Source: an uncultured Actinomycetes bacterium
GTDB taxonomy: Bacteria > Actinomycetota > UBA4738 > HRBIN12
Assembly (NCBI GenBank): GCA_963704725.1
Contig: OY969934.1
Location: 1,685,138-1,749,137, forward strand
Reading direction: 5' to 3'
DNA length: 64,000 nucleotides
The translations under genes and the position numbers were made by a program. The notes beneath the pieces were generated by a model. It saw only the letters and a program-made list of their open reading frames with translations. It was not told the DNA's origin and made no database searches. This document shows positions 54,805 through 59,578 of the stretch, in pieces. Position 1 is the stretch's first letter. Every line of letters begins with the position of its first letter.

Positions 54805-55155
54805 ATGGCGCTCGCCGAGCTGGTTCGCCGAGGCGCAGAGGCCAAAGTGGCAGCGTTCTGCGAGCGCCGCGTGCCGGCGCACGTGCGGGACAAGGTGCGG
54901 CTGGAGCACACCGTTCGCGGAAACGCCATAACGGTCATCGAGCGCAGACCCCCCTGGCGCGAGGACTTCGTTCCGGAGTGGTCGTCGATGAAGATCGCCC
55001 AGCTCCGCTACGACGCCACGAGTCGGACGTGGACGCTGTGGTGGGCGGATCGGAACGGTCGCTGGGACCGGTGTTGGGACGTGGGGGAGACGTCGGACAT
55101 CGACGAGCTGCTGGCCGAGATCGACGAAGACCCGACCGGCATCTTCTGGGGCTGA
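54805..55155 (+). CDS. DUF3024-like protein
   Basis: 116 aa; WTLWWADRNGRWDRCWD and C-terminal ELLAEIDEDPTGIFWG, recognised from memory as DUF3024. Confidence 0.6.
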   Translation: MALAELVRRGAEAKVAAFCERRVPAHVRDKVRLEHTVRGNAITVIERRPPWREDFVPEWSSMKIAQLRYDATSRTWTLWWADRNGRWDRCWDVGETSDIDELLAEIDEDPTGIFWG

Positions 55156-55167
55156 CCGAACACCTGG

Positions 55168-55680
55168 TTGCCAGGACGGACCGGTAAGTGCTATGCAGTA
55201 AGTATGAGTCAGGTACATGCCCAGATCGCACAGCAGGAGTTCGACCTCGACGCGGACACGATCTCTCGGCGGCTCCGGGACACCGAGCCGGAGCCCCTGG
55301 ACGAGCATTTTGTCGTCGTGTCTGGGAAGAGGTTCCCGCCCAAGCAGGTGATCGGAGAGGTCACGGGGCTGGATCGATCGGATTTCAACACCCACCAGGC
55401 TCGCCGGATTCTGAGCCGCCTCGGGTTCACGGTTGGCCGGAGGAGCCGCGACGTGGCCGTCGGCCGGCCGGACGCAGCCAAGCCAGGACCCGACGACGAA
55501 GCCGAGATGCTCAGGCCGTTCATGGGGAAGTGGGTCGCCCAGCGCGGGCTCGAGGTCTTGGTCGCCGCAGACACGCCACAGGCCGTGCTGGCCTGGCTCG
55601 AGCGACACAACCAGTGGGCGGATGCGATGTTCCGAGTGCCGACGGATGAGTCCGATGCGATGGGCGCCGCGCCCGCATGA
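55168..55680 (+). CDS. hypothetical protein
   Basis: 170 aa ORF (internal Met at 55204 possible); KQVIGEVTGLDRSDFNTHQARRILSRLGF suggests a small DNA-binding-like fold, otherwise unrecognised. Stop overlaps the next start (ATGA). Confidence 0.5.
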   Translation: MPGRTGKCYAVSMSQVHAQIAQQEFDLDADTISRRLRDTEPEPLDEHFVVVSGKRFPPKQVIGEVTGLDRSDFNTHQARRILSRLGFTVGRRSRDVAVGRPDAAKPGPDDEAEMLRPFMGKWVAQRGLEVLVAADTPQAVLAWLERHNQWADAMFRVPTDESDAMGAAPA

Positions 55681-56078: not shown

Positions 56079-59000
56079 GGATCACCAAGGAAGTCGCGTT
56101 CGAGGACGCCATCGAGGCGCACCTGCTCGACCAGGCCGGCTACACGCGCGGTGTCACCATCAACTACGACCCTGCGCTCGCGATCGACACGGCCGAGCTC
56201 TTCACGTTCATCGGCGCGACCCAGGCAGAGACCTGGGAGGACCTCGTGCAGCGCAACGGGGGCGACCCCGACGTCGCCCAGCGCCGGTTCGCCGACCGCC
56301 TCGCGAAGCAGATCGACGAGCGAGGAACGGTTGACGTCCTGCGCCACGGCGTCGACGACCTGGGCGTGCACATCCGGCTCGCGTACTTCCGGCCCGCCTC
56401 GGGTCTGAACTCGGACCTCCAGCAGAAGTACGACGCGAACCGACTGACCGTGGTCCGGCAGCTCCACTACGCGCCGGACCACGCGAACGCGCTCGACCTC
56501 ACGCTGTTCCTGAACGGCCTCCCGGTCGCCACGGCCGAGCTGAAGAACCCCCTGACGCATCAGACCGTCGAGCACGCCGTGGCGCAGTACCGGACGGACC
56601 GGGATCCCAGGGACGCGCTCCTCGGCCGCCGGGCGATCGTGCACTTCGCCGTCGACCCCGACCTGGTCATGATGACGACGAAGCTCGAGCGCGGGGCCAC
56701 GCGGTTCCTGCCGTTCAACCGGGGCGGCGACCCGGGCGCGACGGCCTGCGGTGCAGGGAATCCGGCGAGCCCCGGCGGCTACGCCACCTCCTACCTCTGG
56801 GAGCGGGTCTGGGAGCGGCACGCGTGGCTGGACCTTCTCAGCCGCTTCGTCCATCTGGAGCGATCGGTGCCGGGGAGCAAGGCGAAAGCGGCCGTTCGCG
56901 ACGCCACGCTCCTGTTCCCGCGGTATCACCAGTGGGACGCGGTCCGCCGCCTCGAGGCGCACGCGCGCGCGCACGGAGCGGGACGGAACTACCTGGTCCA
57001 GCACTCGGCCGGCTCGGGCAAGTCGAACACGATCGCGTGGCTCGCCCACCGGCTCGCCTCGCTCCACGACCCGCAGGACCGCAAGATCTTCGAGAAGGTC
57101 GTGATCGTCACCGACCGGAAGGTCCTCGACCGCCAGCTCCAGGACACGGTCTACGAGTTCGAGCACGCCCATGGCGTCGTGAAGAAGGTCGAGGAGTCCT
57201 CGAAGGAGCTCGCCGAGGCCCTCCGTTCCGTCGAGGCGAAGATCGTCGTCACGACCCTGCAGAAGTTCCCGTTCGTCGTGGACGAGGTCGCGGCCCTGCC
57301 CGAGCGCCGGTACGCCGTCGTCGTCGACGAGGCGCACTCGTCCCAGACGGGGGAGGCCGCCCAGGAGATGAAGAAGGCGCTCGGCGGCGTGACGGTCGAG
57401 ACGGGCGACGAGGGCGAGATCGACCCCCAGGACGCCGTCGACGCGCTCGTCGAGGCCTCCGCGAGGGCCCGCGGCCCGCACGACAACCTGTCGATGTTCG
57501 CGTTCACGGCGACGCCCAAGGCGAAGACGCTCGAGCTGTTCGGCGAGCCCCCGGACGAGGACGGCCGGCACCGCCCGTTCCACCTCTACTCGATGCGACA
57601 GGCGATCGAGGAGGGGTTCATCGTGGACGTCCTCGAGCACTACACGACCTACGAGACCTACTTCCGCCTGGCGCGAGCGGGGGAGGAGGATCCCGAGGTC
57701 CCGGTGCGCGAGGCCTCGAAGGCGATCGCGCGCTACGTGATGCTGCACCCCTCGGTCGTCGAGCAGAAGGCCGCGATCGTGGTCGAGCACTTCCGCCGGT
57801 CCACGCGCGACCGCATCGGCGGCCGGGCCAAGGCGATGGTGGTCTGCCGGTCCCGCCTGTCCGCGGTCCGATTCCGCCTCGCGATCGACGCGCACGCGCG
57901 GGAGCATGGCTACGGCGACGTCGGCACACTCGTGGCCTTCTCCGGGACGGTCACCGACGACGGCGTCGACTACACCGAGCCGAACATGAACGGCTTCTCC
58001 GAGTCGCAGACGGCGGAGCGGTTCGCCTCCGACGAGCACCGGATCCTGGTCGTGGCGGAGAAGTTCCAAACCGGGTTCGACCAGCCCCTGCTCCACACGA
58101 TGTTCGTGGACAAGAAGCTCGAGGGCGTGAACGCCGTCCAGACGCTCTCCCGGCTGAACCGGATCCACCCGGACAAGGAGGACACGTTCGTCCTGGACTT
58201 CGTGAACGACGCCGAGCAGATCCAGCGCGCCTTCGCGCCCTACTACGACGCCGCGATCGCGGTGCCGACCGACCCGAACGAGCTGTACGACGCCTGGCGG
58301 GAGGTCGACCGGTTCGGCGTGGTCTGGTCCGAGGACGTGGAGGCGCTCGCCCGCTTGTACTTCGGCCCCGCCGCCACCCAGGCCAAGCTCTACGCCCTGC
58401 TCGACGCCGCGCGCGAGCGGTTCACGGACCTGGACGAGACCGAGCAGGAGGAGCTCCGGACCTGGCTGAAGCGCTTCGTCTCGCGGTACGGGTTCATCTC
58501 CCAGGTCCTGCCGATGGCCGACACGGCGATGGAGAAGCGCTACGTCTACTGCCGGCTGCTCGAGCGGGTCCTGCCCTCGGCGCCGAGCGGCTCGATGGAT
58601 CTCGGCGACCGGCTCGCGATGACGCATCTCCGGGTGACGAGGACCGGGGAGCACGACCTGAGCCTGGAGAAGGGGGGCGGGGTCCTGCGCGCGTTCGGCG
58701 AGGGTGGCCCCGGCGGCTACGAGGACCTGCTCGCACCGCTGTCCGAGCTGATCGGCCGGATGAACGAGCTGTTCGGCGCAGACCTGTCCGAGGCCGACCT
58801 CCTGCACCTCGAGGGCATCGGCGCCGACATGGTGGCCAACCCGGAGGTCCAGCAGCAGGCGGCCGCCAACACGGTGGAGAACTTCGGGATCGAGTTCGAC
58901 AAGCGGTTCACCGACGCCGTGGCCGCCCGGATGAGCCAGGCCGAGGAGCTCACGATCCGGATCCTCGACAAGCCCGAGTTCCGCGAGGAGGTCGTTCGGG

Positions 59001-59578
59001 CCCTAATGCCGCGGGTGTACGAGCGGGCCCGGGTCGCCCACCAGCGGACGTGCCCGATCGGGGAGCTGCTGGCCCGACCCGAGGACAAGCACCTCGAGTT
59101 CAAGTCCACGCTGCGGTGGGACCTGAAGACGGGGGAGAAGAGCCGTCTCGTCGAGGCGGCGTCGATCAAGACCGTCGCCGCCTTCCTGAACTCCGAGTTC
59201 GGCGGGACGCTCCTGGTCGGGGTCGGGGACGACGGGGCGGTCGCGGGCCTGGAGCCCGACTACGCCACGCTCCGCAAGGCCGGCAAGGCGGACGCGGACC
59301 TGTTCCTCCTGCACCTCAACCAGGTGCTCGAGAACGCCGTCGGGCTCGCGGCGGCCGCGAACGTCACCACCACGGTCCACCGGGTCGATGGCCACGACCT
59401 GTGCCGGGTCCACGTCGAGCCTTCGGGGCACCCCGTCGACGCCGAGGTCGCGGTCGCCGACCCGCAGGGTCAGCTCGGCAGGAAGCGCGTCTTCTACATC
59501 CGCCTCAACAACGGGACCCGGGCGATCGAGGACGAGCGGGAGCGGGAGCGCTTCGTCGCCCATCGCTGGGGCACGTAG
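56075..59578 (+). CDS. hsdR: Type I restriction enzyme R subunit fused to a C-terminal AlbA_2 / Schlafen-like domain
   Basis: 1167 aa; helicase Walker A QHSAGSGKS and DEAH box VVVDEAHSS; C-terminal ~175 aa (about 59051-59575) with EDKHLEFKSTL and GGTLLVGVGDDGAVAGLEP. Confidence 0.9.
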   Translation: MRITKEVAFEDAIEAHLLDQAGYTRGVTINYDPALAIDTAELFTFIGATQAETWEDLVQRNGGDPDVAQRRFADRLAKQIDERGTVDVLRHGVDDLGVHIRLAYFRPASGLNSDLQQKYDANRLTVVRQLHYAPDHANALDLTLFLNGLPVATAELKNPLTHQTVEHAVAQYRTDRDPRDALLGRRAIVHFAVDPDLVMMTTKLERGATRFLPFNRGGDPGATACGAGNPASPGGYATSYLWERVWERHAWLDLLSRFVHLERSVPGSKAKAAVRDATLLFPRYHQWDAVRRLEAHARAHGAGRNYLVQHSAGSGKSNTIAWLAHRLASLHDPQDRKIFEKVVIVTDRKVLDRQLQDTVYEFEHAHGVVKKVEESSKELAEALRSVEAKIVVTTLQKFPFVVDEVAALPERRYAVVVDEAHSSQTGEAAQEMKKALGGVTVETGDEGEIDPQDAVDALVEASARARGPHDNLSMFAFTATPKAKTLELFGEPPDEDGRHRPFHLYSMRQAIEEGFIVDVLEHYTTYETYFRLARAGEEDPEVPVREASKAIARYVMLHPSVVEQKAAIVVEHFRRSTRDRIGGRAKAMVVCRSRLSAVRFRLAIDAHAREHGYGDVGTLVAFSGTVTDDGVDYTEPNMNGFSESQTAERFASDEHRILVVAEKFQTGFDQPLLHTMFVDKKLEGVNAVQTLSRLNRIHPDKEDTFVLDFVNDAEQIQRAFAPYYDAAIAVPTDPNELYDAWREVDRFGVVWSEDVEALARLYFGPAATQAKLYALLDAARERFTDLDETEQEELRTWLKRFVSRYGFISQVLPMADTAMEKRYVYCRLLERVLPSAPSGSMDLGDRLAMTHLRVTRTGEHDLSLEKGGGVLRAFGEGGPGGYEDLLAPLSELIGRMNELFGADLSEADLLHLEGIGADMVANPEVQQQAAANTVENFGIEFDKRFTDAVAARMSQAEELTIRILDKPEFREEVVRALMPRVYERARVAHQRTCPIGELLARPEDKHLEFKSTLRWDLKTGEKSRLVEAASIKTVAAFLNSEFGGTLLVGVGDDGAVAGLEPDYATLRKAGKADADLFLLHLNQVLENAVGLAAAANVTTTVHRVDGHDLCRVHVEPSGHPVDAEVAVADPQGQLGRKRVFYIRLNNGTRAIEDERERERFVAHRWGT

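Follow-up and report, generated by a model that had tools for sequence, protein, structure and literature searches.

Do closely packed genes within a defence island form one system, or does a smaller unit lie among them? The question is raised by a 64,000-nucleotide stretch of the genome of an uncultured Actinomycetes bacterium (assembly GCA_963704725.1, contig OY969934.1, positions 1,685,138 to 1,749,137; hereafter the window, whose coordinates are used unless a comparison locus is named). Its open reading frame (ORF) table and sequence bear out four ORFs on one strand at 54805-59578: a DUF3024 gene, a gene for a protein here called the partner, a gene for a small retropepsin-like protease, and hsdR of a Type I restriction–modification (R-M) system. 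An earlier note had read these four as a single candidate defence module that should recur as a unit elsewhere. The comparisons described below indicate with high confidence that the conserved unit is instead the two-gene pair of partner and protease (~0.9 kb, 55168-56078). This pair is a self-contained, widespread and apparently undescribed module; a literature search found no description of DUF5678, DUF3024 or the partner–protease pairing. As to the locus as a whole, the evidence tilts slightly towards a mosaic island that harbours an autonomous pair with a toxin–antitoxin (TA)-like mechanism, which we consider the best overall explanation.

Conservation of the partner–protease pair

Loci for comparison were gathered from six look-ups of homologue neighbourhoods and by a profile search of genome contigs with the protease alignment (62 loci), and were screened by tblastn with all window proteins. 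Besides the window, 37 loci have an intact protease gene at an identity of at least 43%. A partner homologue lies directly upstream of the protease gene in all 37, with an overlap of 4 or 1 nt, and these loci span Acidimicrobiia, Nitriliruptoria-type bacteria, Jiangellaceae, unclassified Actinomycetota and Dormibacterota. More than 400 homologue clusters exist for each gene at 67-82% identity, mostly from Actinomycetota metagenome-assembled genomes, with both genes on the same contigs. DNA similarity between loci is limited to the region of window ~55174-56060, clustering of the flanking ORFs yielded no third recurrent gene beside the pair, and median ratios of nonsynonymous to synonymous substitution (dN/dS) of 0.15 for the partner and 0.13 for the protease indicate purifying selection on both. 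The ATGA overlap of the two genes in the window (55677-55680) is real, as read from the sequence. The coupling of an uncharacterised protein to a protease proposed earlier is therefore sound for a strictly conserved pair, translationally coupled by its overlap, but does not extend to DUF3024 or hsdR.

The history of individual loci also sets the pair apart from its surroundings. The close relative L001 lacks the counterpart of window ~48668-55101, from half of an HNH gene through nearly all of DUF3024, and lacks hsdR beyond residue 51, yet its pair is intact, flanked by the last 53 nt of DUF3024 on one side and the hsdR stump on the other. These losses amount to two deletions, one from hsdM through DUF3024 and one of nearly all of hsdR, and both spared the pair. 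Elsewhere the module is sometimes lost by decay, as degraded copies at L022 (2400-2900), L048 (9778-10090) and L066 (4132-4332) attest, the latter two being isolated fragments. L022 was considered as an orphan protease and rejected; it is a degraded copy with a remnant of the partner tail and a C-terminally truncated protease, adjoined by an apparent tRNA gene. A second partial partner-like match at L019 was likewise set aside as a degenerate remnant without a protease.

The pairing reaches well beyond these loci. At 20 distant loci, a gene for a protein of 61-73 residues is directly followed by a gene for a protease with the signature DSGAD...LLGQEGFF. The small protein belongs with DUF5678, a family whose listing holds 1081 proteins, rich in members from the candidate phyla radiation (CPR) and none of them functionally named. 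When the search was made from the DUF5678 side, an ORF of 135-140 residues lay directly downstream in 3/3 sampled genes; two of these ORFs carry precomputed Asp_protease_2 matches, and the third has no Pfam match and is left uncalled in some contigs. The hosts of DUF5678 partners (>1000) include CPR bacteria, Acidobacteriota, Actinomycetota and others.

An alternative is that DUF3024, partner, protease and the HsdR–Schlafen fusion have co-evolved as a single defence operon, the small proteins acting together with the nuclease/helicase. The single strand, the tight packing and the two 4-nt overlaps speak for it (the second overlap, at 56075-56078, is also real and reads GTGA), and the order DUF3024–pair–hsdR predates the split between the window and L001, which keeps remnants on both sides. 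However, the 37-locus survey found the four-gene string in no other genome. A DUF3024 gene lies within 10 kb of the pair at 0/37 of the other intact-pair loci, and on Mycobacterium and Rhodococcus plasmids DUF3024 occurs alone, with neither a protease nor hsdR nearby. DUF3024 is a stand-alone neighbour that does not belong to the pair, which owns a promoter-like element described below.

The case of hsdR is similar. It lies downstream of the pair only in L026 and, as the stump, in L001, both of them same-lineage relatives at the window's suf-operon site and neither with an overlap. A 515-residue GHKL/HSP90-like ATPase gene (minus strand, L026:311-1858, 1.5 kb; assigned from a motif read from the sequence) intervenes between protease and hsdR in L026, and in L001 (8400-8441) the protease stop is followed by a spacer of 43 nt, which contains a GGAGG ribosome site, before the GTG of hsdR. 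This spacer is missing from the window (56066-56075), and its absence adds two residues to the protease and creates the GTGA overlap. Because L001, the nearest relative, keeps the spacer, the overlap is a recent local event; with the end of the protease gene fused to the start of hsdR by this deletion of ~43 nt, hsdR probably relies on the promoter of the pair. The window hsdR is thus probably co-transcribed and translationally coupled with the pair, as a local side-effect and not a design feature. The claim of translational coupling to hsdR is correct as to the overlap but takes a local accident for part of a system. The neighbourhood survey largely refutes the four-gene operon, which we regard as very improbable.

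The two proteins and the element upstream of them

By its sequence profile, the 133-residue protein is homologous to retropepsins, and its catalytic motif is intact. The LLDTGA motif pointed out earlier is present and holds the catalytic D37; it is followed by the flap G68-G69-F70 and by LLGQEGFF at residues 104-111, in which L104, L105 and G106 form the hydrophobic-hydrophobic-Gly motif. Across 43 homologues, D37, G68, G69 and the residues of LLGQEGFF never vary, F70 is nearly invariant, and an N-terminal (M)RFxFKELPG is conserved in the family. The protein has no hydrophobic N-terminal segment, as read from its sequence, and is for this reason probably cytoplasmic.

The assignment to the retropepsin fold was reached through distant relatives. 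Against Pfam Asp_protease_2 (PF13650), the window protease scores 18.0 bits, below the gathering cutoff of 24.3. Many close homologues carry precomputed PF13650 matches, and distant relatives of 26-38% identity, from Saccharibacteria, other CPR bacteria, Acidobacteriaceae, Elusimicrobia, Gammaproteobacteria and Obscuribacter, pass the cutoff with 27.2 and 33.7 bits. An hhalign comparison joins the window family to the DUF5678-linked proteases over the full length (99.4% probability, E 1e-21), with D37 aligned to the DSGAD of the distant relatives; the profile of the latter in turn aligns with the DTGAD of HIV-1 protease. In searches of the PDB, this distant-relative profile reached HIV-1 protease with E 8e-9 for the tethered dimer and 4.6e-4 for the 99-residue chain, with the DTG, flap (GIGGF) and IIG/LLG (IIGRN) regions all matched, and the RVP domains of Ddi1 at ~1e-3. 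PDB profile searches with alignments of close homologues of the pair gave nothing useful, and only the diverse alignment reached the HIV protease. Scores against TIGR03698 and TIGR02281 fell well short of the cutoffs, also with the distant relatives, and PHROGs gave no match for the protease.

The 158-residue partner consists of an SCO5918-type N-domain (residues ~1-80), a disordered linker (82-95) and a DUF5678-like C-domain (~96-158), an arrangement mirrored in its AlphaFold2 model, which has two domains and a disordered linker (predicted local distance difference test score, pLDDT, 78.7). For the N-domain, the NCBIfam model SCO5918_fam (NF038312) gave 45.4 bits, against an equivalog cutoff of 60, at residues 19-97 of the 170-residue ORF, and the identical 158-residue protein P0121 carries a precomputed match to PF28009. 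A fold search with this domain found no significant match to a DNA-binding fold, and PHROGs offered no more than a marginal match for the partner. The C-terminal 66 residues have no Pfam match at E up to 1, hence none to DUF5678 (PF18929). In a profile-to-profile comparison by hhalign, the C-domain does align with the distant DUF5678 partners (94.9%, E 4.6e-8, 53 columns including a G-x-WVA motif). Three of five distant 61-73-residue partners scanned pass PF18929 (29.0, 24.1 and 32.7 bits) and two fall just below, as do several intermediate partner homologues. By these alignments, the upstream gene of the pair always carries a DUF5678-type domain. A C-terminal tail, FRVPxDE...AP, is conserved as well.

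The SCO5918-type domain also has a life outside the pair. It is found by itself in hundreds of clusters and is largely restricted to Actinomycetota. The namesake SCO5918 closes the cold-induced operon SCO5921-5918, which also encodes CspA and a DEAD-box helicase (bioRxiv 10.1101/2025.04.11.648403). In a single case, the 545-residue protein P0344, an SCO5918-type N-domain is fused to TIR/SEFIR and TPR repeats, which suggests that the domain can serve as the sensor or nucleic-acid-binding head of a defence-type effector.

The partner had been taken to start at TTG 55168, 12 nt after the end of DUF3024 at 55155. This spacing is wrong. More than 400 partner homologues, all of 157-160 residues, align from the position of ATG 55204 onwards, the partner has 158 residues in the public gene call too, and the TTG, lying inside a conserved element, is ruled out as a start codon. 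The real gap between DUF3024 and partner is 48 nt, and it contains a conserved promoter/operator-like element. The TTG forms the first three bases of a -35-like TTGCCA (55168-55173), which is followed after an 18-nt spacer by a -10-like TATGCA (55192-55197); a direct repeat, GTAAGT, occupies 55184-55189 and 55198-55203, its second copy abutting the ATG.

Upstream of the partner, 20 compared loci have nothing in common except this element abutting the ATG, with the consensus TTG(T/C)GG, 17-18 nt, TAT(A/G)CA, embedded in GTAAGT-N8-GTAAGT-ATG. The pattern TAAGT-N9-TAAGK-ATG occurs once in the window (expected 0.00) and exactly once per locus, at the partner start, in 21/21 clade-A loci. A comparison of partner-upstream sequences in L023-L034 and L036-L045 revealed that the repeat varies by clade while keeping its position: GTAAGT in the window clade, AGAGA(A/G) in two to four copies in a second clade, and TAAG(T/A)AC together with a perfect TTGACA at the equivalent place in an Iamia/Acidimicrobiales clade. 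An operator recognised by the encoded protein would be expected to vary with the protein clade in this way, and we consider the repeat a candidate operator. The clade-linked change may also reflect operator and protein changing together. Because there is no room for a Shine-Dalgarno site before ATG 55204, the mRNA of the pair is probably leaderless.

The island and other settings of the pair

The gap between sufB and sufD holds an inserted island of ~11.8 kb (window ~47822-59628; Table 1), within which the G+C content falls to 0.62-0.66 near hsdS. Its gene order is an HNH/DUF222 endonuclease gene and a 129-residue ORF (both minus strand), hsdM, hsdS, a 187-residue gene and a GIY-YIG-like gene (both minus strand), vapBC, DUF3024, the pair and hsdR. 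L001 and L026 are relatives with differently eroded or expanded versions of the island at the same suf-operon site. The earlier placement of the small genes between hsdMS and hsdR is right in that hsdM and hsdS lie upstream at 49870-53111, but it overlooked four further genes between hsdS and DUF3024. Together, hsdM, hsdS and hsdR are a complete, split Type I R-M system, of which the three small genes are no components. The region, set in a mobile or defence island, is a mosaic in which the R-M system is interrupted by small independent cassettes: the 187-residue and GIY-YIG-like genes, vapBC, DUF3024 alone, and the two-gene module at 55168-56078. Only this last cassette is a conserved unit.

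Table 1. Positions of the pair, its upstream element and neighbouring genes in the window
Feature	Position	Strand	Basis
hsdM	49870-51816		PADLOC MTase_I, 921 bits
hsdS	51813-53111		PADLOC Specificity_I, 369 bits
187-residue gene and GIY-YIG-like ORF	53114-54095	-	ORF list, family scans
vapBC pair (430 nt upstream of the two-gene pair)	54154-54770		Pfam
DUF3024 gene (116 residues)	54805-55155	+	ORF list, Pfam
Promoter/operator-like element of the pair	55168-55203	+	Comparison of upstream sequences
Partner gene (158 residues; 170 if counted from 55168)	55204-55680	+	ORF list, homologue alignment
Retropepsin-like protease gene (133 residues)	55677-56078	+	ORF list, profile comparison
hsdR (1167 residues)	56075-59578	+	ORF list, Pfam, PADLOC

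The neighbours differ in how well they can be named. The identity of DUF3024 was confirmed by Pfam (PF11225, E 3.5e-32), and the gene also matches PADLOC PDC-S43 (PDLC05018; E 3.2e-22, residues 1-116 against positions 1-115 of the 115-position model), a label that denotes a candidate from a defence search and for which the literature yielded no experimental validation, only a single passing mention in one paper. The 187-residue protein has no match in Pfam, NCBIfam, PADLOC or PHROGs, and the GIY-YIG-like ORF has weak matches only (Pfam GIY_YIG_2, E 0.0036; PADLOC PDC-S14, E 1e-5); these two genes could be a further small cassette inside the split R-M system. HsdR comprises the Pfam domains HSDR_N, SWI2_SNF2/ResIII, T1R_D3 and SLFN_AlbA_2 (PADLOC REase_I, E 5e-39). 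Pfam thereby upholds its description as a fusion, placing the C-terminal SLFN_AlbA_2 domain at residues 1003-1151 (window 59081-59527; E 2.2e-14). The HsdR–Schlafen fusion is kept in L026, with 83% identity over residues 1-1141, and at L044 a similar Schlafen domain adjoins a helicase fragment. Fusions to HsdR go unmentioned in a 2025 paper on Schlafen nucleases in bacterial defence.

Across 31 actinobacterial loci, 136 proteins flanking the pair were classified. PIN-domain proteins are the commonest neighbour family, with 8 of the 136 (five PIN and three PIN_3), and PsyrTA flanks the pair in L002. In L075-L078 (932-4809), a short-form pair comes directly after a probable type II R-M system, made up of genes for an N6/N4 methyltransferase and a MutH-like nuclease. 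Genes for an AEP-like primase and a phage-type integrase enclose it, which places it on an integrative element, and it is the second case of a pair adjoining R-M genes. On the whole, the neighbourhoods of the pair are mixed and only partly defence- or TA-like.

Proximity to R-M genes raises the alternative that the pair controls restriction as an R-M accessory, with the partner timing hsdR in the manner of a C-protein, the protease degrading HsdR (restriction alleviation), or both. The window hsdR, lacking its own start region and probably driven from the pair's promoter, would suit such a role. So would the R-M genes that adjoin the pair in the window lineage and in L075-L078, and the opposite-strand hsdR-like gene of L044. 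Most pair loci, however, have no R-M gene within 3.5-10 kb, ResIII accounts for 2 of the 136 neighbours, and L001 retained the pair despite the loss of its whole R-M system. We consider a restriction-controlling role improbable.

A possible mechanism and its relation to known systems

A simple model would describe the pair as an autoregulated TA-like module with an aspartic-protease effector, a reading that is plausible from sequence but that we hold tentatively. The protease, as a homodimer, would be the effector or toxin. The DUF5678 domain of the partner would bind the protease and hold it inactive, and the partner tail FRVPxDE...AP may dock in the protease as a pseudo-substrate. The SCO5918-type N-domain would bind the GTAAGT boxes that overlap the promoter, leading to self-repression of the operon. 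Upon loss of the partner, through stress, infection or loss of the locus, the freed protease would cleave cellular or invader proteins, and the outcome would be a TA-like or abortive-infection-like module. The PIN neighbours, PsyrTA at L002 and the integrase-bearing element of L075-L078 are in line with a TA-like or mobile context, and the TIR/TPR fusion of the SCO5918 domain also speaks for the model.

Several observations weigh against this model. Toxicity, neutralisation, DNA binding and protease activity are all predictions. The AlphaFold2 monomer model of the protease (pLDDT 55.4) is too poor for a fold search, for which reason the fold assignment rests on sequence profiles only. A strict sigma-70 and terminator scan of 54700-56300 found nothing. 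Hundreds of metagenomic homologues share ~70-80% identity, a very high level for a gene engaged in conflict, and the flanking proteins other than those named above are heterogeneous and mostly housekeeping. A tblastn search of sequenced phage and plasmid collections with the protease gave no match, and neither the 170-residue ORF nor the protease matched PADLOC-DB v2 at E up to 0.01; the earlier remark that the combination could not be matched to a named system accords with this negative scan of both pair proteins.

Some of these observations lend themselves to a different reading, a regulatory or processing module outside genetic conflict, in which the protease matures or turns over the partner or another substrate in a stress response. 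Strong conservation under purifying selection, the many housekeeping neighbourhoods, the lack of phage, plasmid or PADLOC matches and the place of SCO5918 in a cold-shock operon (bioRxiv 10.1101/2025.04.11.648403) would all fit. Against this stand the patchy distribution across distant phyla, the varied insertion sites, including the suf operon and an integrase-bearing element, the degraded copies at L022, L048 and L066, and the compact autonomous cassette, an architecture typical of selfish modules. Such a role outside conflict is a serious contender, though in our estimate an unlikely one.

The polarity of the model could also be reversed, with a harmful nucleic-acid-binding partner and a protease that acts as the antidote by keeping it cleaved. 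The conserved C-terminal tail and the disordered linker of the partner could be cleavage sites, and the SCO5918 domain has a TIR effector domain as its fusion partner elsewhere. Yet the 61-73-residue DUF5678 partners have no extra domain that could be toxic, and in type II TA systems it is usually the upstream small gene that encodes the antitoxin. Reversed polarity appears highly unlikely.

If the TA-like model with a protease effector is followed across the wider family, a DUF5678 protein and a retropepsin-like protease may define a new, widespread class of TA or abortive-infection systems with a dimeric aspartic protease as effector; in Actinomycetota, acquisition of an SCO5918-type DNA-binding domain would then have added self-repression. 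We put this forward as a speculative and somewhat doubtful generalisation. Free-standing cytoplasmic bacterial retropepsin homologues have no known role, and the DUF5678 and SCO5918 domains are likewise without known function; their strict pairing places all three in a testable context, namely a compact cassette with a catalytic Asp and a candidate operator. If the protease does act as a toxin or defence effector, it would represent a new enzymatic class among TA and abortive-infection effectors, and the pair would offer a bacterial context in which to view the ancestry of retroviral-type proteases. More generally, the locus is a caution for annotation: tight packing in defence islands does not equal functional linkage, and here a 43-nt deletion made the overlap with hsdR.

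Among known systems, type II TA modules such as VapBC and Phd-Doc offer the closest organisational parallel. The pair shares with them two small genes with overlapping stop and start, repeats that overlap the promoter, and an upstream protein that joins a likely nucleic-acid-binding domain to a predicted partner-binding domain. Gene order and the 4- or 1-nt overlap are kept in 37 loci, and the order alone in 20 distant loci; the pair is scattered over variable, partly TA- or defence-rich contexts and survives deletions on its flanks. It differs from them in a degree of conservation above the usual TA level, and in that toxicity, neutralisation and autoregulation are here predictions. To our knowledge, no characterised TA toxin is an aspartic protease of the retropepsin type.

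The protease itself resembles retropepsins and the RVP domain of Ddi1 (clan AA, A2/A28) in its single lobe of ~100-130 residues, its D-T/S-G-A motif, its G-G-F flap and its hydrophobic-hydrophobic-Gly motif. In contrast to HIV-1 protease and Ddi1, it is encoded by a free-standing bacterial gene and not within a polyprotein or a UBL-UBA protein, carries LLGQEGFF and (M)RFxFKELPG, and is always accompanied by a DUF5678-domain partner. Rickettsia APRc (PMC4140852) and the secreted retropepsin-like peptidases of Pseudomonas aeruginosa (PMC11957051) are also single-lobe bacterial aspartic proteases of clan AA. They are membrane-bound or secreted, with surface or envelope functions, whereas the window protease lacks a hydrophobic N-terminus, is obligately paired with an upstream partner and falls into another subfamily. 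On the side of the partner, the nearest known relatives are the DUF5678 (PF18929) proteins, with which its C-domain aligns profile to profile and to which the window protein adds an SCO5918-type N-domain.

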